Positions 30,759-58,089 of a stretch of DNA of 64,000 nucleotides are shown in pieces. How positions within the stretch are numbered: the stretch's first letter is position 1; the number at the start of each line of letters is the position of its first letter. Source of the DNA: Candidatus Marinacidobacterales bacterium (lineage in GTDB: Bacteria > Acidobacteriota > Vicinamibacteria > Marinacidobacterales > SMYC01); the NCBI GenBank assembly GCA_965237955.1, contig OZ250169.1, forward strand, positions 1,984,001 to 2,048,000. Direction: 5' to 3'. The position numbers and the translations under genes are program-made. The notes below the pieces were generated by a model. That model saw nothing but the letters and a program-made list of their open reading frames with translations. It searched no databases and was not told the origin of the DNA.

Positions 30759-32073
30759 TGAACCGCCCCGGGTTTTCCGGAGACTGTTTTAGTTGAGTCT
30801 CGCCATCTCTAGCGAGCCTTCCTGCGACCGATAGTAGTTCATCTCGTACTCGACGGGGGAGACATTTCCGATCGGCTCCAAGAGTCGTTGCGTGTTGTAC
30901 CAATGGACCTACTCGAGGGTGGCGAACTCAACGTCTTCGAGACCACGCCAGGGCCCACGTCGACGGATCACCTCGGTCTTGTAGAGGCCGATGATGGATT
31001 CAGCCAAAGCGTTATCGTAAGAGTCGCCTCGGCTGCCGACGGACGGCTCAATGCCCGCCTCGGCGAGCCGCTCGGTGTAACGGATCGAGACGTACTGCAC
31101 GCCGCGATCGCTGTGATGCACCAATTGATCTTCTGGGTTTAGTCGGCGCTCGTGCAGCGCCTGCTCCAACGCATCGAGAGCGATGCCGGCAGTCAACGAT
31201 GTCGTCGCTCGCCAACCGACGCTGAGTCGAGCGAAGACGTCGATGACGAAGGCGACATACACGAAGCCGCGCCACGTGGCGATGTAGGTCAGGTCCGAAA
31301 CCCAGAGCTCGTTCGGGCGTGTGGCGTTGAAGTCGCCCTCCACGAGGTCCATCGGGCGAGCGCCGCTCGAATCCGGCTTCGTCGTCTTGAATCGACGTCC
31401 ACGGACCGCGCCCTGGAGACCCATTTCACGCATCAGACGGGCCACCGTGCATCGAGCCACGTCGCGGCCCTCACGGCACAGCTGACGCCAGACCTTGCGC
31501 ACGCCATACACGTCAAAGTTCTCTTGCCGTACACGACGAATCTCGCCGCGGAGTTGGACGTCGCGCTTCGCTCTCGCTGGCAGGCGGCTTGGGTCCTTCT
31601 CTCGCGCTTTCTGCTCGTAATAGGTCGACGGGGCGATCGGAAGCATCCGGCAGATCGGCGCGTCCCCGTAATTTTCACGGTTCGCGTCCACGAACAACAC
31701 ATTCACCTCGGTCGGCGGTCGAGCTCCGCCTGGGCGAAAAACGCCGACGCCTTGCGAAGGATCTCGTTCGCCCGCTTTAGCTCACGGTTCTCTCGCTCAA
31801 GCTCCTTCAGCCGCTGACGCTCGTCCGTCGTCAGTCCCGCTCGTTTCCCAGCATCACGCTCTGCTCGCCGCACCCACGTGCGTAGCGTTTCCCGCGTACA
31901 GTCAATCTTCGACGCAATCGATGAGATCGCTGACCACTGAGATTCGTGCTGAGCCTGCTGGTCGAAAACCATCCGCACTGCGCGCTCTTTTACCTCCGGT
32001 GAATACCTGCTTCGTCTTGTCATGACTCCATCCTCTCAAGAGTTGGAGTCTCCGGAAAACCCGGGGCGGTTCA
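30759..32073 (-). mobile_element. IS3-family element (orfA 32023..31703; orfB with premature TAG at 30909)
   Basis: IRs TGAACCGCCCCGGG..; [23 protein letters not shown]; no TSD. Confidence 0.93.
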
Positions 32074-35643: not shown

Positions 35644-35710
35644 CGTCGTGTCCAAAAACTCGAACGGTGCCGAGAAGCTAGAATCCTAGAGGCGTTCTCG
35701 AAGTCCGCAA
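35644..35710 (-). repeat. Type-B transposon terminus
   Basis: CGTCGTGTCCAAAAACTCGAACGG..GAATCCTAGAGGCGTTCTCGA, similar to 48586 and 59850. Confidence 0.8.
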
Positions 35711-37003: not shown

Positions 37004-38315
<1,312 letters not shown>

Positions 38316-40875: not shown

Positions 40876-43800
40876 TGTTAGCGGCGGGCGTAAATTGCAC
40901 ACTTATGGCGGGCGAAAATTGCACACTCGGCCATCCGTAAAAGGAGGCCGTTGTCGTGTGTCTGGAGTGCCAGACATGACGGCGCGCCTTCAATCAGAAT
41001 GGCGTTTCCGGAGTGGAGGCGCCGATGTACGGAAGGGAGAAACGAGTGTTACTACGAGAGTATTTGGAGCAGGGAATCAAGAAGGCGGCGCTAGCAGACA
41101 AGCTAGGAATCAGCCGCCGAACGGTCCACCACTGGATAAAGACGGGTCAACTGGACCGAGAGTTGGACGAGGAAACGGTGCGCTACAAGAAGCGTCCGCG
41201 GATCGAGCGCAGGATCGACCCGTACCGGGAGATCCTTCATTCGCGCCTGCACGAGTTCCCGGAGCTGAGTTCAGTACGCCTGCATGATGAGATCCGTGCC
41301 GCGGGCTATGAAGGCGGCTACACGCAGGTCAAGGAGTACGTGCGGCAGATTCGCCCACAGCCACCGGCGGAGCCGCTGGTGCGTTTCGAGACCCCACCAG
41401 GCCACCAAGCTCAGGTCGATTTTGCACACTTTCGTTTGCCATGGGGTCGTCGGTGGGCACTTCTCGTGGTGCTCGGATACTCGAGGCTGCTATGGCTTCG
41501 GTTTTTCAAGCGACAGGACATGCGGACGTTGTTCGCGGGGCTTGAGCAGGCCTTCCTATTTTTTGGAGGAGTTCCCAAAGAGCTCCTTTTTGACCAGATG
41601 CGTTCGGTCATCGTCGAGGATCACCGCCGGGAAGGTGGCCCTCTCGTTGAGAACCCAGAGTTCGTCCGCTTCGCCCACCACTGGGAGTTTCGAACAAGAG
41701 CGTGTCGCCCGTATCGGGCGAAGACCAAGGGCAAAGTGGAAAGGCCAATCCGCTATGTGAGAGGAAGCTTCTTCTACGGTCGCCACTTTATCAACGATGA
41801 CGACCTCGATGCTCAGCTCGAGCGTTGGCTGAGTGACGTCGCCAACGTCCGACTCCATCGCACAACCAACGAACGACCGATAGAACGATTCGCGCGCGAT
41901 GAAAGGGCCACTCTGAGACCGCTCGTTGAGCGGCCATATCGCTCTCTTGTACTGCCAAACCAACCCGCGAGAAGAACTCCAAAAGCCTGCTTAACCACAC
42001 TGCCTTCGATGGATGTCGAGCATCGTCCCCTCGAAGTCTACACGCGGCTCGTTGGAGGTGGACAATGAAGGCGAGCACAATATCGCGACGTGAGCAGATC
42101 CGTACGATGCTGGCCGACCTAAAGATGCCTGGCGCGCTCGAAGCTGTCGACCGCGTACTATCTGATGCCGATGGCGGTGCGGTCACAACGGCGGAGGCCA
42201 TCGAGAACCTTCTTGGAGCGCAGATCACGTTGAGAAACAACCGTCGTCTCCAAGCGGCGATGCGCTCCTCACGACTCCCCGCGGTCAAAACAATCGATGA
42301 GTTCCGATTTTTCGTTCCAGCCATCGATCAAACGCGAGCAGATTGAGAACCTTCACGAGCTCGGGTTCGTTGAACGTAAGGAGAACGTCGTCTTATTGGG
42401 ACCTCCTGGTGTGGGCAAAACTCATCTCGCGATTAGTCTTGCCATCGCCGCTGCCCAGAATGGACGGCGCGTCTATTACGGCACCCTGGCTGAGCTCATC
42501 ACCTCCCTCGAAGAGGCTCGTGACGCGGGCCGCCTCACTCGTCGACTCGCGGTTCTCAGTTATCCGTCACTGCTTGTTGTCGATGAAATCGGATACCTAC
42601 CCGTCACCCAGACCGGCGCGGTGCTTTTTTTCCAGCTCATAAGTAGGCGATACGAGCGCGCTTCGACCGTGCTCACCTCTAACAAAAGTGGGTCTACGCG
42701 GGTTCGTGTGGGTTGAAAACGGCATTTCTGGGTAATGGCGGAAGGAATGCCGCCACGATCTTCAGCTTGAGATATCCCTCGTCACGATAGCCGTAGGCGC
42801 GTCGTTGCAGAACACGGATTTTGTTGTTGACCCCTTCAACCAGTCCGAGACTGACTTTGTTCTCAGGATGACAGTAGGAGGCGATACCATCCCAATGGGA
42901 CTCAATCATTCCGGCGAACTTCTGGTAGGGATGCAGGCGCTGCCATTTGAGGCTGTCTTTCCAACGTGTGAAAAAGGCGCGAGCCCCGCGTTCGGTGCGG
43001 TAATCCCAGAGTTGCCCGAAGGCCTCCTTCAAAACATAGGCGGTGTTCAGGCGCCGGTTGGCCTGGAGCAACTTCTTGAGTGCGCGGCGACCGTCCAGGC
43101 TCAGGTTCTCCCGCCGGGAAAGCAACGTGTAACGCTGCCCCTTGATATACGACCGGTCCTCGCCGCTGAGGCGTTTGTACTCACGGCGCCGGACCTCATC
43201 GAGAGCCTTTGACAGGTGACGCATGATATGAAACTTGTCGAAGATGATCCGCGCATTGGGTGCGTTGTTAATCACCGAGTTCCGGAAGGGCTTCCACATA
43301 TCCATGGCGGCCAGCTTGATACGGGCGCTTTTCTTCCCGCCCAGCGCCTTGAAGAACAAATCGATGTCGGTTTCTTTGCGACCCTCACCGCCCACCCAGA
43401 TGGGACGCGCCCGCTCCAGGTCGCTGACAATGACACGATAGTTATGTCCCTTGCGGATGGAGATCTCATCGAACCGATGGCCCGAGGCGCCGGCAGCCCC
43501 GCCCGCTCGACTTGCTCTTGCATGTAGAGCTTATCCAGGTCCTTCACCGTAGTGTGGTGCAGACGTTCCATCTCGGCCACCGCCTTGTTCGGCATATCCC
43601 GGCACAGCTTGCCCACATGCGTCGCAAAGCGCTGGGTGTAGCGCGGGTTGTTCGCCAGCCAGTCCAAGTGTTCTACATGCACACCACCGCACCCACGACA
43701 GTTGACGCGCCAACGCTCGTATTCCAGATAGATCCGCCAGCCTGCCAACGACAGGTCGCGGACCCGGCACACTTGCTTGTCATAGCGCCCCCGGCACCGA

Positions 43801-44368
43801 TGCCCACAGTACGAGCACACGGCTGTTTTTTTCGCCTCTTGAGCTGGATGACGCGGGCGTATCGGTCACCGAATACACCGTTCAATCGGGCGCCAGCCAC
43901 GAAACCTGGTAGCGCAAAAAGCGAGCGGATCGACTGGGGATTTTTCACTCGGTTAGCCTATCCTAAAAACGGATCACTTCTCAGCACCTGATGAAGTGCT
44001 GAATACCTTTTCCACACAATGAGTTACACTATTTCTCCGTCAGCATTCGCCCACAGATTTCCGCGTAGACCCACAAAAGTTTCGAGGAATGGGGCGAGAT
44101 CCTTGGCGACGAAGTCATGGCCGCCGCTCTCATCGACCGCATTCTGCACCACTGCCACCTCGTCAACATCCGAGGAAACAGTTACCGCATGAGAGAGCAC
44201 TCCGAACTGTGGCGAGCGCTCCATCCGGCGGGTTCGGACGAACCTCACCCGCCGGCTAAATCTCATAGGAAATACACGGAGGCGACGGCGTCATAGGGTT
44301 CGCCACCCATGGCTCGGGTGTGCAATTTTCATCCGCCATGAATGCGCAGTTTTCGGCCGGCGTTGACA
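40876..44368 (+). mobile_element. IS21-family element (istA ~41025-42068; istB frameshifted and interrupted)
   Basis: TG..CA ends with repeated AAATTGCACAC; 5-bp TSD ATGAG; FETPPGHQAQVDF, KGKVER; GPPGVGKT. Confidence 0.93.
42690..44072 (-). mobile_element. ISL3-family element nested in istB; transposase in three frames
   Basis: IR GGGTCTACGCGG / CCGCGTAGACCC; 8-bp TSD ACAAAAGT; MDMWKPF, FDKFH, VEGVNNKI. Confidence 0.92.
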
Positions 44369-44735: not shown

Positions 44736-47678
44736 TGCGTATTCCAGCCATCGTGAACGCCGAATCCAGAGCAAGCTGAACAGCGAATCCGGTGAAGCCG
44801 AACGCTCATCGAAGCGATGAAGTGTTGGGTGACCTCCTTTCCACTGATTGAAAACGTGAACCTATCTTACCTGCGTGTTGTGTAGCAAGGGGCGGCAGGT
44901 CGCTGCCTACGGGAGCGGGCGTAAGGAAAGACGCGAAGCGACCTTCCCGCTCCCGTAGGCAGCGACCTGCCGCGGCCGAACCCCGGGCGATGTGGGGCTG
45001 GTTTCGGGGGGTTGCTGGGGTATGGCCTGGCTCGAGAAGACGCTTCCTGAGGCATTCTCGCGCGTCGTTTTGGCGCCGCATCGTCTGGTACCCCGGGTTT
45101 GGCGGTTTCACCCGTTTTTATCGCATCGACGCTGTGGTCCCTCGCTCGCTCATGCATCGGCGTTGTCAAATGCCTTTGGCGCAGCCTTGGTCTTTCTCAG
45201 AGAAGCTCCTTTGAGAGTGATGCGGTGCGCGCTGTGGAGAATGCGATCGCAGATAGCGTCTGCCTGGTTTGGGTCGCCAATCGCTTCGTGCCACTGCTTG
45301 AGCGGAATCTGGGTCGCGATGAGTGTGGAGCCACGCTCGGCGCGGTCTTCGATGACCTCCATTAGATCCCGTCTCTCCGATTCTTTCAGCGGGTGAAGCA
45401 GCCAATCATCGATAGCCAGTAAGTCCAGCTTGGCGAGTTTCGTCAAAAGCCGGGCGTAGGAACCATCACCACGAGCGACCGCGAGCTCGTGGAGCAAGCG
45501 CGGTGCTCGCACGTAGCATCCGGTGAAGCCGCGACGACAGGCCCGCTCCACGAAGGCGCAAGCCAAGAACGATTTGCCAATCCCCGTCGGGCCGGTGATG
45601 AGCAGGTTATGGCGCTCACCGACAAAGCGGCAGTTGCCCAGGCTCAAGATCTGTTCGCGGTTTAAGCCTCGAGGCGCTTGGAAGTTCACGTTCTCCAAAC
45701 ATGCCGGATAGCGGAGCTTTGCCGCTCGCAGTCGTCGAGAAAGCTTACGCTGTTCGCGGGCGGTCCACTCGGCATCGACCAGGAGTCCCACACGTTCCTC
45801 GAAGCTCAGCTCCTTGTATTCGCTCGAGCTCAACTGGGTTTCGAACGCGGACACCAAGCCGAACAACTTCATGGCGTTCATCTTTTCTATCGTTTCGGGT
45901 GTCAGCATCGGGACTCTCCTCCTTCGTAGTGATCCGCGCCTCGGATGTTCTCGTGCTCCTCTCGCGGTTTCGCTTCGGCGTCCGATTCGAGCACCACACG
46001 ATCTAGACCAGCCGAGAGAATGTTTTTCACCGTGCGATAGCTGTAAGAGCTCAAAGCTTCCGCTCGTGCGCAAGCGGCCTCGAGACGCTCACTGCCCCAG
46101 CGGCTGCCTAGTCGCATGACTCCCAGGCAAGAGCGAAATCCCTGCTCCGGGTGAGGCCGACTCTCTAGAATCCCCGCAACCAGCCTTCCCGTGGCGCGAC
46201 CTGACTGCTCCGCCCAGTGGAGCAGCCGCGACGGCGTCCACTCCAGGTGCTCCCGATGCGAACGTGGCATATGCTCCGGGTTCGTGGAGTAGTGCCCCTT
46301 TCCTTTCTTGCGGGGATGCGACGCGACGCGCTTTCCCTTGAACAGGACCTCCACCACCGAGGCCGTCACCCGTGCCTCGACTTTCTCGTGAATGAGCTGA
46401 TAGGGAACGCTGTACAAGTTGTTCTCCACCTCCACGTGGTAGTCGATGTTCACTCTGCACCGCTTCCACGTCGATAACTCGTAGCTCTCCTGCGGTAGCG
46501 GTTTCAGTACGGGCCGGTCTAGCCTTTCGTACAACTCCCGCCGACTCACACCGAGCTTCTGCATCGGACGCGCATTCAGGACCTCTAACTTCTCCCAGAT
46601 GGCTTCGTTCAGTTCCGCCAGGCTGAAGAACGTGCGATGACGAAGCACCGCCAGGATCCAGCGCTGCGCCACCTGCACTGCCGACTCCACCTTCGCTTTG
46701 TCTTTCGGCTTGAACACCCGAGCCGGGACCACAACCGCACCGTAATGCGTCGCCAGCTCTTCGTACGTCCGGTTGATCCCTGGCTCGTAACGGTCCACCA
46801 AATCCACGCCGCTCTTCAAGTTGTCCGGAACCCAGATCTCCGTACTGCCACCGAAGTAATCCGACATCCCCTTATGGGCCTTCGCCCACGATTCCAGCGA
46901 CTGGTTCAGTGTCGCTTCGACGTAGGTGTAACTGCTCGCGCCCAACGTCCCGACGAACAGCTCCATTTCGACGAGCTCTCCCGTTTTCGGATCGACGATG
47001 TGAGGCTTCTTCCCCGAAAAATAGACGAATGTCTTCTCGCCTGCTCGATGCCGTTGACGCATCGTCGGGTTCAGCTTCTTCTTCCACTGACCGTACAGCT
47101 CGCAATAACGGCTGTAGCCGTACGCTCCCGGCTTATTCTCCGCGTACTCCACCCACAGCTGCAGCAACGTCAGCTCTCGGTGACGCCTCAGCTCCTCGTG
47201 GATGTGGGCATAGTCCAGACCCGGCCGTGCGCCAGACGAGCCCGGCGGCGGAAACAGCCCTGCCTCCAGCTCCCCGTCGCTCAGCTCCTCCGGGAGCGGC
47301 CAGCTCAGACCACCCTTCTTCGCCTTGGCCAGGTACTCACTCACCGTTCCAACCGCCACGCGAAGTGCCTTTGCGATCATGCGGTGAGTAAAACCCAGCT
47401 CGTACTTTAACCTTAGAACCTCTCGTATTTTTCTCATCGATAACCTCTTAGCTGCCATTTCCTAGATCGTCCTCCTTCCGGGTACGACCTAGAGTTGCCT
47501 TGAAACGTGCTATCGATGAGCGTTCGCGATGCCGGAACCGGCGTTCACGTTGCCTGGAATCCGTGTTCACCTTCCCCGGAATCGATGTTCACGATCCCCG
47601 GAATCCGTGTTCACGATGCTTTGGAATGGATGTTCACCTTCGGCTGGAATCTGCGTTCACGATGCCCCGGAATACGCA
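44736..47678 (-). mobile_element. Second IS21-family element (istA 47458..45902, istB 45908..45150)
   Basis: TGCGTATTCC ends with multiple ~22-bp GTTCAC/GGAAT repeats; PDNLKS, KDKAKVE; GPTGIGKS; first catalytic Asp appears replaced (FVYF); no TSD. Confidence 0.92.
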
Positions 47679-47684
47679 CTCTCC

Positions 47685-48466
47685 ATGCGATGAAATTGTA
47701 CGCGTGGATGCGGAACGCGGAAATTACCGCCGATCGAGTAGGCATGGTTTGTTGCCGCAGCTTCGACGTCGCGGCCAATACGTTCTTCAAGCTGTCTTCG
47801 GGTATCACGTCTTCCGTTTTCCAGTTCAGCGTGAAGGAGTACCTGGCGCAGCTCGATGATCTTCGAAGCGAGGTAGCCTCGCAGGAGTCCGATCCAGAGG
47901 ACTGGTTCAGCCCGTATCCCTTCAATCCCATGCGGCTGAAAGCGCTTGAAGTCTTCACCAAGGGCCAGCCCTACCGCGAGCTGATCGGCTCCAACGGAGG
48001 AACCCTCACTGCCGACGAAGTCGCCGATCAGGTGACCGAGCTCATGAGCATCATGGAGCCGACACACCTGACCGACACCGGCGACGTCGGCGACAAGGCG
48101 CGCGCCTATCTACTGAGGGCAAAGTTTCTCGTGGCGGCCGCCAACGGAGTCTTCGAGCGTTCCGAGGTCGAGGCACTCGAGAGTTTGGTGGGGCTGGCCG
48201 TCTCACTGGACGAGATTCGTGAAGTCTTCAACCAGCCCGTCGATGTAGTCCGTGAGCAAGTAGTTGAGCTTTCCAAGGACATTGCCTACATGATGACCGG
48301 CCTCCAGAGGCTTCAGCTGATTCGGGACATTGTTGTGATTTCCTACGCGGACGGATCGATCGACCAGCAGGAAATCGATTGCCTCGTTTGGCTCTGCGAG
48401 AATGTCGGAGTCAACCCGCGGTTCATTCAGCAGATCCTCACTAGCGCGGCCCGCGGAGTGGATTAG
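47685..48466 (+). pseudogene. 5'-truncated M48 peptidase-TerB fusion
   Basis: W.RNAEITADR.G, SP.PFNPMRL; TerB-like VAAANG.FE.SE and YADG.IDQQE. Confidence 0.65.
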
Positions 48467-48585: not shown

Positions 48586-49792
48586 CGTCGTGTCCTAAAA
48601 TGCGAACGGAGCCGAAAGCTCGAATCCTGGAGGCGTTCTCGAGATTCGCGGAGACCAGCCGACGCGACACGGGCTCTGCGATAGGCGCTCCCGAGCAGGA
48701 CCTCTCCTCCAGACCATCCGTTTCGTCCAGCTGGCGCGCCCGAACTCCTATGCGGCGGCGCGGTGGTAATAACTGAGCAAACCGCCCAATCGCTTACGAC
48801 ATCGCACCTTCCCGTGAGGACTGCCGACGCATTCTTCCGCTTCGAGCAACGAGTTCCCAAGCCCTTGATGGTTGCGCTCTCCGTGATAATGATGGATGAA
48901 CTCAGTGATGGCACGACGCAGCGATGGCTCACTGAAGAAGATCATCCGCTCCAAGCACTCGCTCTTGATCGACAAAACAAACCTTTCGACATAAGCGTTC
49001 AGATTCGGCGAACAGTGCGGCAGCCGAATGACGTCAGTTCCGGCGTGCTCGAGCAAATCGCGAAACTCCGTAGTGAACTTCCTGTCGCGGTCCAGGATGA
49101 GGAATCGCTTGCCGCGCAGAAAGCCGTCGAATGGGTCGGTGAGATTCCGACCCCCGGAGTGATTCCGGCAATGTGTACTTTTCGCGAAGACAGCTCGATG
49201 ACGACGAGCACATAGTAGGTCACGAGCCTACGAACTGTGGCGACCTCGACGGTGAAGAAGTCGGTCGCCGCAACGGTTTCCCAATGGGCGGCGAGAAACG
49301 TACGCCATGGCGTTCGCTCACTTCGCTCCGGCGCAGGCTCGATGCCATGTTCTCGCAGAATATTGGCAATGGTGCTCCTGGCTACCGTATGGCCGAGATT
49401 CAACAGGGCGCCGCGAATGCGTGTATACCCCCACTTCGGATTCGACTTCGCCATCCCGTCGTGTCCAAAAACACAAACGGACTCAAGACCGTCGCGCCGG
49501 GACGTTTCGCATCGGTCAGGCGCAAGCGACCCTGGATCTGATTTCGAAGAACTCGATTCTCGGCCACAAGATACCCGTTGCGCAGGAGCAATTTCTCATC
49601 CACGGATCCTGAGACGTAGCCCAGCATGGTCTTCCAGTCCATCGCGACTCCTTCCGCTGAACTGGAATACGTATCCGACCGCGATGGCGGATTCAAGCAG
49701 CCTTTGGAAAGGTGCAAACTGCTGACCCGCTGGGCGTTCGAGTATATTGACCAGACGCGACGTCGAGCTCGACGTACTATTTGCACCATACG
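48586..49792 (-). mobile_element. Decayed rve/integrase-core element with CGT..ACG termini
   Basis: [59 protein letters not shown]; GGG on both flanks (possible 3-bp TSD); internal type-B terminus at 49457. Confidence 0.8.
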
Positions 49793-50036
49793 GGGTTGCT
49801 CCGTTTCTACCATCGGGAAGCCGCATGAGTATTTTGATCTAACGACCACGTGCAATTCCTACCGCTCGTTCTGGCTGGCTGGGTCAACCGCCAGCAACAG
49901 GATGTGATTGACTAGCTGCGAGAGGAGAACCGTGTGCTCCGAGCCGGGCTTCGGGGCAAACGTCTCTGGCTTTTTCGCTTGCATCGTTCTCACATTTTGT
50001 ATATATGGCATTGTTGGGTTCTATTAGGAGGGAGCG

Positions 50037-53561: not shown

Positions 53562-53655
53562 GTAGGGTCGAGGGCTGGCGCGGTGCTCCGTAGGCGCGGC
53601 CTATCTGTTTCTCCCCGTTTCCTGTGGGAGTGCCTCACTAGCCGCACCGTAAGTC
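53562..53655 (-). ncRNA. Group II intron 3' remnant (domain VI)
   Basis: Identical to 57086-57179; same CGGG 3' exon. Confidence 0.85.
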
Positions 53656-53718: not shown

Positions 53719-54951
<1,233 letters not shown>

Positions 54952-55188
54952 TGTCTCTTCATACTTTTTGCCTAAGCCACGCGCCTTTTCCCGGCATATC
55001 TTGGTCAATTCGGCAACGGCAGGTATGAGCGGCTGCGTCTTATCCTTGTCATCGGGCACCGCCACTCTGATCGCACAAGATGTGCCAGCACCTAAGAAGA
55101 AAGCGATAGGCTTGTCATGCCGCGCAAGATGGTCCCTCAGGCTGGAGAGTATTTGTTGAGCGTCATGCGTTTGCTGTGTATTGTTCAT
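54952..55188 (-). pseudogene. SIR2-like protein N-terminus truncated by IS3
   Basis: IAFFLGAGTSC..LIP motif. Confidence 0.7.
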
Positions 55189-56687
55189 CCGGGCCCCTCC
55201 GGCATCACGATCAAGCTGTCAAGAGCATCCCGCAGAACGCGCGTCGCACGGCAATCGTCTTCGCTATAATCAAGAATGCGCTGGCGAATCGTAGGGTCAC
55301 CCGTTTCTACCCACCTATGGAACCATTCGATTGAAGCCGCCCCCGAGGGATGTGTGTCGCGCCACGCAAAGACGAGATAGTTCGCCAGTGTTTTGATTGA
55401 GAAGTCTCGTGTTGGCCATTCTGTGGCCTTCAGCACCACATTAGAATAGAGGTCCACGGCCCGTACCGGGTCGAATAGCGCCTCCAGTTCGTCCTCCTTG
55501 CAGACGTCCGGATATTTCTCACGTAGCTTTCGATAGATGGTTCGCTCGTACTTCGAGTAGTAGTAGATCACGCAGGGCTGGCTTTCCTGCATGTAGCGCC
55601 AAGCCTCGGCAAAAGCCTGCTTCTCAGCCTCTGCGGTTGTTTGCTCGGCGAAGAAAGTGATAAACCGTTCTGTGTCGTTGTCGCCGCCCCGCCGTTCGAC
55701 AAAACCGTGCAGGTAACAGATGTTGCGCATGGGATCGACTTCGATGTCGAAGTACAGTTCCAGATCGGCGACCGGCAGCGTTACCGGTTCGCGGAGATAG
55801 GGCTTGGCCTTCTTCCCCGCCGTAATCAGCTTCGCTCGGGCGTGCAGCTTCTCTAGAGTCGCGAGACCTATGCCGGGGAAGATCGTTTTCTTGCCCGTGA
55901 CAAATTCTGCGGGGTAAGCCTCGGCCAGGTCCCGGATCGTTGCGATACGTTCCATCATCACGTCACGCTTCGACCTGCCCAACTCAGGAATCAGCGTCAG
56001 ATCGTTCGCATCGGTTAGGCGTGAGATACAAGCGCTGTACCAATGACAGAGCTTGCAAACCCCGCTATAGGCGGCAAGCGTCTCCGTGCTCTTGCCGACT
56101 ATCGCCTGGGCCTCGGCGAGGCAATCCTGATAATCCTCCCAGAGCGTGCGTGGATTCCGTTTCCCGTATGGTTTTATAAAGTCATAGATGATTTCTTGGC
56201 CATCAATATCCCAGATAAAGCCACGTTTCCCGGCAGAAAGGCCCTTACGTTCCAGGATGTCTGTGTAGAGCCCGAGTTGCACCGCGTAGTGCTTCTTGGG
56301 TTTCGACAGGTCACCCGAGCCTTCCTCCCCTGCGCCTGACTTGATATCTCCAGCGACATACCCGTCACCCTCTTGGCGCAGCAGGTCCGGGTCTCCAAGA
56401 AGGCCTTCGGCCTGCATACGTCCACTGTAGATTAGCGGTTCGCCGCCATGCATAGCCTCAAAAGTCAGCCGTTCCTTTTCATCACCTGCGTATATTGAGA
56501 GATCGGTAAGGGGCATTTCCAGCCTCTCAATAACCTCTTTCTCATAGATGTTACCCTTCTCCCAAAGCAATTGAACAAACGGGTTTGACTCATCGCGTTG
56601 CGCCTGGTCGGCGAAAAGGTCCATGGTCACGCGATGCGGACAAGAAACCAAATCGTAAAGCATTGAGGCGGTGACCGGCGCGGTCAT
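55185..56687 (-). CDS. TM0106-family RecB-like nuclease with RNase H-like domain
   Basis: CPHR, GDPDLL..GDIK, QLGLY, C..C.W..C, YFDIE, FSIKTLA, Y.EDDCRAT. Confidence 0.88.
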   Translation of the reverse strand: MTAPVTASMLYDLVSCPHRVTMDLFADQAQRDESNPFVQLLWEKGNIYEKEVIERLEMPLTDLSIYAGDEKERLTFEAMHGGEPLIYSGRMQAEGLLGDPDLLRQEGDGYVAGDIKSGAGEEGSGDLSKPKKHYAVQLGLYTDILERKGLSAGKRGFIWDIDGQEIIYDFIKPYGKRNPRTLWEDYQDCLAEAQAIVGKSTETLAAYSGVCKLCHWYSACISRLTDANDLTLIPELGRSKRDVMMERIATIRDLAEAYPAEFVTGKKTIFPGIGLATLEKLHARAKLITAGKKAKPYLREPVTLPVADLELYFDIEVDPMRNICYLHGFVERRGGDNDTERFITFFAEQTTAEAEKQAFAEAWRYMQESQPCVIYYYSKYERTIYRKLREKYPDVCKEDELEALFDPVRAVDLYSNVVLKATEWPTRDFSIKTLANYLVFAWRDTHPSGAASIEWFHRWVETGDPTIRQRILDYSEDDCRATRVLRDALDSLIVMPEGPG

Positions 56688-57030: not shown

Positions 57031-57085
57031 TTGCATAAAGGTATCGCCAATCGAATCAGTACTGCAATGCAGTTTTGCAATCCCG

Positions 57086-57985
57086 GTAGGGTCGAGGGCT
57101 GGCGCGGTGCTCCGTAGGCGCGGCCTATCTGTTTCTCCCCGTTTCCTGTGGGAGTGCCTCACTAGCCGCACCGTAAGTCCGTTTCCAGCCCCCGCCACAT
57201 CGCACGCAGCGTGCGGCTTTCCCGCACTACGCGCTCCTGCACACTTCCCGCGAAGGGTTATGTGACCTATCGAGCCGGGGCGTCTTTCGGCGAATCTACG
57301 AGATATCGAACTCGGTAATCTGTGAACAGTCCGACAGTCGCCTACATCCATCGCCTACTCCATCGCTTCCAGCCGAAACCTTGGCGCAAGAAGCGCCAAG
57401 ACTTCTCGGCCTTCGCCTTGACGTATATCCTTCATCTCAGCTCCTGCAGAGTGATGGGTGATTTTGTCATCTCACCCCTGCCTCGCTTGTTGACGAAGGA
57501 GTTGTGTGCAGCAGGGCCCCTTTGCTCCACGGGCGTTGCCCCGTTTCAACGCTACTACGGACCCAGCCGCCACCGTCTCGTCTTCAACCGTTTTCCCGGG
57601 GCCTCCGGTTATGCGGTCTACCTTGCTCCGTCGATTTCTCGACGGGACGAGGACGGCTTCTCCAGTTGCTTGGCATGTCCTTATCACCGTGCTGTCCCTA
57701 CCACCCCGCCAGAGGGATGTGCCTCATCAGATAGTCTGGCGACACATCCTGTTGCCTTCGTCCGACAGGAGAAAACTCGGCCTCTGGGGCTATTTTTTTG
57801 TCGGGGCCACCTATGGGTTCACTTGTGTTACGGCCCGGTGACTCGCTCACCATCCTCAAGATGGCTTTGTCAGTCAGCTTCATCCGTCTCGTTTCCTCCA
57901 CGAACGTGACTCAAGCTACGGGGCGCTAACTTTTACCCCGGTGGGACTCTTTCCCACTGAACATGCCAGCCTTCGCTGGACGCAC
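57086..57985 (-). ncRNA. Group II intron, 900 nt, with internally deleted IEP
   Basis: 5' GTGCG at 57985; domain V GAGCGCGTAGTGCGGGAAAGCCGCACGCTGCGTGC; 3' CCCTAC; IEP remnant MTKSPITLQELR*RIYVKAKAEKSWRF joined to GFGWKRWSRRW. Confidence 0.9.
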
Positions 57986-58089
57986 TCCTGTCCAAAAACA
58001 CAAACGAACTCAAGACTGGCGCGCCGGGCCGTTTCGATCGTCATCACCCCGTGGCGAGCCCCAGATCAGGAGCGTGTCGGAGGCGATGT

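Follow-up and report, generated by a model that had tools for sequence, protein, structure and literature searches.

What is a group II intron doing at the very tip of an insertion sequence (IS), and did it arrive there by chance or by targeting? This question is raised by a locus on the reverse strand of the window (the whole stretch of 64,000 nucleotides that was analyzed, from a Candidatus Marinacidobacterales bacterium; contig OZ250169.1, positions 1,984,001 to 2,048,000). In our view, it is very likely that a group IIB intron devoid of an open reading frame (ORF) occupies the tip of a type-B end between A and CG (denoted A/CG), that it is complementary to its exons through EBS1, EBS2 and EBS3, that it probably retrohomed to this site with a reverse transcriptase (RT) borrowed in trans, and that it probably disables the end. 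The boundaries, the pairing and the census of targets are direct observations. The targeting of IS ends is real and well supported, while splicing and retrohoming activity is predicted from the sequence.

The Intron and Its Insertion Site

The intron (Table 1) has a 5' end of the form GUGYG, a 3' end of the form AY, a domain V (DV) and a bulged A in domain VI (DVI), all features of group IIB. Its domain I matches the Rfam model group-II-D1D4-4 with 116 bits. Folding of the 3' part yields DV plus an extended DVI in which an A is bulged (z -3.2). Rfam detects DV/DVI with an E-value of 0.0036 and 28 bits, below the gathering score of 40, because DVI is long. The RT ORF is deleted while the ribozyme is kept; relative to relatives of ~2.0 kb, ~1.1 kb of the RT gene is missing.

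Excision restores ..GGACAGGA followed by CG, which places the insertion site between A and CG at the type-B tip, 2 nt inside the tip. The original prediction had proposed an RT-less group II intron at 57086-57985 whose removal restores an end continuing with CG. This is borne out by the domain I score and by 627 of the 660 ends in the genome, which continue with CG. The type-B end is an orphan, with no family transposase within 1.5 kb upstream.

Table 1. Features of the intron, its target and related sites in the window.
Feature	Position	Strand	Remark
ORF-less group IIB intron, 900 nt, GUGCG...CCCUAC	57086..57985	(-)	3 full copies in genome
DV and extended DVI, bulged A 7 nt from 3' end	57086..57236	(-)	Rfam and fold
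RT gene remnant with stops; ~27 N-terminal codons joined near 57390 to C-terminal end	57285..57470	(-)	
ID(iv)/ID3 region: GCC/GGC stem and GUUU/GGAC stem	57754..57782	(-)	
EBS1 UCCUGUC, 7 nt, ID3 loop	57764..57770	(-)	
EBS2 AAAAA, 5 nt	57794..57798	(-)	
IBS1 GACAGGA, -7 to -1	57986..57992	(-)	
IBS2 TTTTT, -13 to -9	57994..57998	(-)	-8 unpaired
5' exon: outward-pointing type-B terminal inverted repeat, IS481/IS3-like element	57986..58036	(-)	
CG opening the 3' exon: tip dinucleotide displaced from the IS end	57084..57085	(-)	C is IBS3
3' remnant of the window intron, CGGG 3' exon	53562..53655	(-)	one of 39 3' ends
Unoccupied type-B end (GACACGA followed by CG)	49459..49509	(-)	more with tips near 35645 and 61485
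Type-C end (..CACCATACG)	49772..49792	(+)	pairs 3/7 with window EBS1; no fit to window intron

Downstream of the intron, a 500-aa ORF (window 55185-56687, (-)) has RNase_H_2 and PD-(D/E)XK domains. The region is rich in IS debris, including an IS21-type pair with adjoining 22-nt repeats, ISL3 pieces, other rve elements and two ALIL pseudoknots (45150-47458 (-), 47530-47696, 42694-43820, 41013-42068, 53998-54921, 31629-31745, 37332-37445).

The Target IS Family

In the genome (8.13 Mb), ends were counted as matches to one end pattern (660 sites). CG comes next at 627 of these and the intron at 3. Exact counts are 437 for type A, 146 for type B and 37 for a sister end. Nineteen elements of ~1428 bp are bounded by inverted type-A ends (e.g., G000:C1:168673-170100), and most of them code for a 356-aa rve/DDE-type protein in a single ORF. 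Type-B ends border a sister subfamily with 47-58% identity. The tips of the family are CG (types A and B) or TG (some relatives). Its more than 600 ends in this genome are clustered and have the outer flank consensus GGGT, and MITEs of about 129, 317 and 392 bp occur.

Among empty sites revealed by repeated flanks, CG precedes in only 47 of 174 cases, so that CG is part of the element. Among 174 end pairs, none showed a target duplication longer than 3 nt. These pairs also yielded no matching empty-site allele; among 2612 pairs, one 869-bp repeat was found.

Elements of the IS481 family have TGT...ACA ends and duplicate their target. The target IS resembles IS481/IS3 elements in having a single rve/DDE-type ORF, terminal inverted repeats and TG-tipped relatives. 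It differs by CG tips in the main subfamilies, by the lack of a detected duplication and by a transposase that fails both NCBIfam cut-offs (99.8 versus 224 bits for IS481, NF033577; 81.5 versus 160 for IS3). Plasmid relatives of the 356-aa transposase are mostly annotated just as integrase core domain proteins. The family thus appears to be unclassified, as judged by the NCBIfam cut-offs, and it appears to be highly rearranging.

A second, unrelated intron family occurs in the genome (G000:C1:375227 (-), which is L003, and 466168, 881615 and 3640597; Rfam D1D4-6). Its EBS1 (CGUAUGG) matches the type-C end at 49792 perfectly, each of its four 5' ends comes exactly after the tip of an IS-like end of another kind (..ACG or ..GCG), and one copy has an open 466-aa RT frame.

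Pairing of the Guide Loops with the IS End

In the ID(iv)/ID3 region, the GCC/GGC and GUUU/GGAC stems are paired in 95% of the cells of an alignment of 22 hand-picked rows (one of them mis-cut), with changes on both sides. The CCGA/UCGG hairpin in which EBS1 had originally been placed has to be abandoned: only 69% of the cells are paired, with no covariation. The IIB-type stem register puts a 7-nt EBS1 at 57770-57764. By the layout of IIB introns, we take delta to be C57771, delta' to be G57778 and EBS3 to be G57759. The delta/delta' positions are complementary in the window intron. EBS3 is complementary to IBS3, yet it is an invariant G in 65 of 65 sets and so is devoid of covariation.

The original prediction had located UCCUGU at 57770-57765 and CAAAAA at 57800-57795 correctly, and both guide sequences do pair with the exon; their extents, however, are 7 nt (57770-57764) for EBS1 and 5 nt (57798-57794) for EBS2. 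Across 106 distinct EBS/exon sets, 6.45 of 7 EBS1-IBS1 positions are paired, as compared to 3.37 upon shuffling (maximum 3.82 in 2000 shuffles), and 3.74 of 5 EBS2-IBS2 positions, as compared to 1.96. Both pairings thus occur at conserved positions, and the anticipated covariation between EBS and terminus is found across these related sets. Within the 59 end-like sets, the values are 6.54 versus 4.28 (shuffled) for EBS1 and 3.90 versus 3.01 for EBS2. These 59 sets contain 34 distinct EBS1 sequences, and the 25 validated sets contain 16.

In a register scan, EBS2 pairs with -9 to -13. A six-nt EBS2 at -8 to -13 was rejected, having no signal within end-like exons in that register. A candidate EBS2a (C57800 versus 57999) is weak: Watson-Crick pairing at -14 is 0.39 versus 0.26, with a similar excess at -16, so that there is a weak hint at an EBS2a-IBS2a pair in this intron class. 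In PMC8643678, no homologue of this pair is reported to have been found outside IIB1/IIB2.

The genome was also searched for sites that fit completely. For EBS1 UCCUGUC together with EBS2 and IBS3, 32 of 33 such sites are type-B ends. For the variant UCGUGUC, the eight commonest contexts are all type B and account for 111 of the 139 full-fit sites. Type-A ends mismatch the window loops at -7 and -9. They had been thought to fit as targets, which these two mismatches contradict, as does their total absence among 21 insertion contexts (see below) even though type-A ends outnumber the others (437 versus 146 type-B and 37 sister ends).

Copies in the Genome and Probable Fate of the Occupied End

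The genome contains three full copies, and 39 intron 3' ends as compared to four 5' ends. Possibly, this excess reflects that upstream DNA is deletable IS debris while downstream DNA belongs to the host. The other two full copies have EBS1 UCGUGUC and reside at GACACGA ends. When near-identical 5' ends were collected (31 rows, from which three short alignments to other introns were dropped), the remaining 28 represented 21 distinct contexts: 20 type B, one ectopic and none type A. The ectopic context comprises two rows, with EBS1 pairing at 4 of 7 positions. EBS1 is readable in 17 rows (UCG at CGA in 12, UCC at GGA in one, UCC at CGA in two, ectopic in two). UCCUGUC copies thus reside at a matching end in one of three cases and at a one-mismatch end in two, and covariation is weak inside this lineage. 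The idea that a single C/G change in EBS1 tracks the end perfectly is weakened by the two mismatched copies.

The 39 3' ends have 27 distinct flanks, of which 25 start with CG. The bases after CG are GG in 14 and CG in 7 of the intron flanks, and GG in 417 and CG in 85 of the 627 free ends. These varied flanks right after CG look like fresh IS target junctions, as expected if the intron still traveled with a transposing IS, by way of the CG tip 900 nt away or of an end restored by RNA splicing; this is barely credible, since the 5' contexts are just as varied, homing into ends already inserted yields the same flanks, and splicing acts on RNA and leaves the DNA end unchanged. Hitchhiking had been suggested; it cannot be direct, as only the last 2 nt of the end lie beyond the intron, and what survives of this suggestion is passive carriage in composite units.

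The second remnant that had been reported (53562-53655) is real and has the CGGG 3' exon. Its flank had been matched to the sequence outside the terminus at 49792. The match itself is genuine (57 nt, 93%, to 49791-49847), but the terminus is of another subtype (3/7) and is not the empty allele. The same flank is found without any IS end in at least eight places, which points to a shared insertion hot spot.

Among 28 distinct 5'-truncated junctions, an intact IS tip is joined in 16 (in one case recognized by an ad hoc pattern). Many remnants can thus be explained by IS ends that cut into the intron; intact ends would have done so later, leaving 3' remnants behind, a step documented in part by these junctions. 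An intron fragment that is 72-75% related and has a different target (G000:C1:6210729-6212203 (-)) is split by an insertion beside its EBS1 loop.

At the occupied end, the last 2 nt are parted by 900 nt from the transposase-binding repeat, which would inactivate the end. Type-B cores in the genome are followed by GT or GC only at the three intron copies and at one unrelated site, from which it may fairly be inferred that the intron disables the type-B end. No type-B core running into new DNA with an intron-derived tip was found in the genome.

Probable Movement of the ORF-less Form

Full 900-nt copies with 98-99% identity are present in four further genomes (G012, G015, G021, G033), which span two families. 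A single deletion junction recurs next to 12 distinct CG flanks (or 13, if a one-base variant is counted). Together with the 21 distinct 5' contexts, this argues that the ORF-less form itself moved. It would be mobile with the RT supplied in trans. EBS pairing would direct retrohoming into A/CG, where, in line with established knowledge, the intron would reverse splice into the top strand and cDNA would then be primed at the replication fork. For RmInt2 (see below), such priming is described in the accessible text of PMC4615759. Replichores show no bias in this genome (12 versus 9, with the origin guessed from GC skew).

The helper was looked for extensively. The full-length RT-encoding copy that the original prediction had called for was found intact neither in the window genome, the RTs of which (L001-L003) belong to other classes, nor in G012, G015, G018, G021 or G033. 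These genomes carry either the ORF-less form or sizeable pieces thereof and, with all candidates scored, cognate RT fragments only. Among 55 genomes of the order, a full-length cognate RT was found only in G009 (for three genomes, among 30 scored of 44-65 candidates). The intron in G009 has a different target, and its RNA is 88% identical, the nearest full-length RNA. The helper is thus missing, transient or non-cognate. RNA contigs from four runs contain intron pieces with other flanks and the EBS1 variant. Since ligated exons are indistinguishable from DNA ends that are empty, splicing could be recognized only by a lariat or circle joint. No splice or circle joint was found in these contigs, which drop rare forms.

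The failure to find an intact cognate RT where the full ORF-less form sits would also be expected if this form were the fossil of an end-homing, RT-encoding ancestor, spread thereafter solely through recombination and as DNA cargo of composite IS/MITE units. In agreement with this, one copy lies inside a 1115-bp unit flanked by intact ends, and a 73-nt intron remnant occurs in eight copies, all with one flank. The copy at G000:C1:2998915-2999816 combines the 5' variants of the copy at 4677440 with the 3' exon of the window copy and is likely a recombinant; recombination can reshuffle flanks. Cargo, however, keeps both flanks, yet there are 21 5' contexts and 12 3' flanks with exact junctions. 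Furthermore, none of the 41 related genomes contains a near-identical RT-encoding parent. We consider this scenario rather unlikely and prefer retrohoming with a borrowed RT.

A Clade of Introns Targeting IS Ends

Relatives were retrieved by the intron 5' end, ignoring the exon, from 41 related genomes, from 120 metagenome loci (drawn from 21 of the 64 parts of the collection) and from 91 genome loci. After removal of exact duplicates, 218 intron 5' ends remained, with some residual overlap between collections, and these relatives are not independent. By regular expressions, 111 exons were classified as end-like, 33 as intron targets, 11 as transposase gene and 57 as other; six were too short. 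Where at least 600 nt upstream were available, an opposite repeat, or else a family transposase within 350 nt, was found for 36 of 80 end-like exons, as compared to none of 21 intron-target exons and two of 38 other exons. The remaining 44 end-like exons were devoid of such independent validation; beside the 14 of them that were checked with Pfam, there was no family transposase. L055, L057, L059 and L079 are among the complete elements with an opposite repeat, and L099 is a 283-bp MITE carrying a full-length intron with the EBS1 of the window. Upstream transposases occur in either orientation, so that both IS ends are usable.

The tip of the element agrees with the 3' exon (CG for CG-tipped, CA for TG-tipped elements) in seven of eight loci, the eighth being a tandem insertion. 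The clade thus lands at A/CG in CG-tipped elements and at A/CA in TG-tipped ones, and its EBS1 varies with the ends of different subfamilies within one IS family. A tree of 33 RT proteins places every one of the 15 end-like rows on one side of 22 rows (support 100/99). When 49 hand-picked rows were compared by their RNA, with EBS masked, the tree placed the window copy together with all 25 end-like rows on a side of 35 rows (100/98). With midpoint roots, these supported sides also hold 6 (RT) and 10 (RNA) rows classified otherwise. Named hosts of validated ends belong to Acidobacteriota and Gemmatimonadota, while further records with end-like exons bear the names Pseudomonadota, Myxococcota and Krumholzibacteriota.

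Sister introns use other targets. Some reside at two fixed sites in this IS family's transposase gene (L051, L060, L087, L134, L146, L151, L220, L232; L101, L118). Others enter group II introns in domain V or VI, or insert at an intron's 3' end, resulting in twintrons and tandems (L047, L049, L056, L098, L105, L137; L058, L088, L095; L077, L102, L174). Additional ORF-less derivatives (764-912 nt; L013, L068, L073, L170, L174, L222, L237, L249) are scattered on the tree, which suggests that RT loss was repeated in the clade.

If ends were simply the most abundant safe sequence, they might be hit by opportunistic retargeting, just as the sisters enter introns and the transposase gene. The 107 of 218 sampled 5' ends that are not end-like, as well as the more than 600 ends in the genome, are compatible with this reading. 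It is, however, very unlikely, given that the distance from the tip at which the introns land stays constant over many EBS1 variants, that end-targeting clusters on both trees, and that the most abundant end type (type A) is unused. The intron had originally been described as specialized on the termini of an abundant transposon family. Such specialization now has clade-wide support, but the target in this genome is the type-B subfamily and not type A.

It is tempting to speculate further that one undescribed IS family has a dedicated parasite in this multi-phylum clade, that the site is fixed at A/CR because transposase cutting opens the DNA or supplies the primer missing from an endonuclease-less intron, that the ORF-less dwarf spreads between bacterial families by non-cognate RTs, and that the second intron family converged on the same tips. 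Taken as a whole, we regard this as a long shot.

Comparison with Known Systems

The literature that was searched (most subscription journals being out of reach) yielded no paper on introns in the ends of this IS family and none describing the family. IS4321 and IS5075 (IS1111 family; cited in PMC11187229) are said to aim at Tn21's terminal inverted repeats. Like the window intron, they hit the terminal repeat of another element, but they are ISs of the DNA recombinase type and not retroelements. Among group II introns, sheltering in mobile elements is a general habit (PMC7306698, accessible text).

RTs from full-length relatives in the clade have ~435 aa, FADD in RT5 and no endonuclease domain, and are encoded by introns of ~2.0 kb. 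According to the accessible text of PMC3552965, the same features characterize g2/class F introns (sensu lato) such as B.th.I3. With 48% identity over 432 aa between a clade RT and the RT annotated at the B.th.I3 coordinates (one pairwise comparison) and with the FADD motif, the clade probably belongs to g2/class F. The best Rfam model differs (D1D4-6 for B.th.I3, D1D4-4 for the window clade). No mention of end-targeting by g2/class F introns was found in the accessible text of PMC3552965. The class D C-terminal motif LX3AX3PXLF[V/A]HW, as given in the accessible part of PMC4615759, is absent from the clade RTs, the tail of which is of the GFGWKRWS type when read by eye.

ORF-less introns in Thermosynechococcus elongatus are moved by related RTs, diverge in their targets and enter other mobile elements (PMC2882425, accessible text). 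More generally, as stated in the accessible text of PMC4424553, a genome with a bacterial ORF-less intron nearly always also contains a related helper intron. TeI introns share their genome with the helper RT, whereas the genomes with the full form of the window lineage yielded no intact cognate RT. A copy with 98-99% identity in two families raises the question of which RT moves it.

The closest parallel is RmInt2, a class D intron from Sinorhizobium meliloti GR4, which homes to the inverted repeats of ISRm17, as demonstrated by assay (PMC4615759, PMC5894124, accessible text). The strategy of homing to IS ends is thus already known from RmInt2. The window lineage has the same habit, with one fixed site in 20 of 21 contexts. 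As far as the accessible text of these papers goes, both are endonuclease-less IIB introns that use IS inverted repeats as homing sites (predicted ones in the window clade) through EBS1, EBS2 and EBS3, the last being a candidate by its layout in the window clade. They differ in that RmInt2 is one intron with one IS, while the window clade belongs to another class, targets an unclassified IS481/IS3-like family, has 34 EBS1 variants and includes an ORF-less derivative. The fixed site 2 nt from the tip is a feature of the window clade; for RmInt2, the position within the repeat is given in figure S1 of PMC4615759. The clade represents a natural set of matched EBS/target pairs, and it offers a direct test of introns as brakes on IS spread, because the cutting site is hit rather than a gene. 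What is a single-intron habit in RmInt2 becomes a clade-level pattern, with guide loops retuned many times at a fixed position in one IS family.
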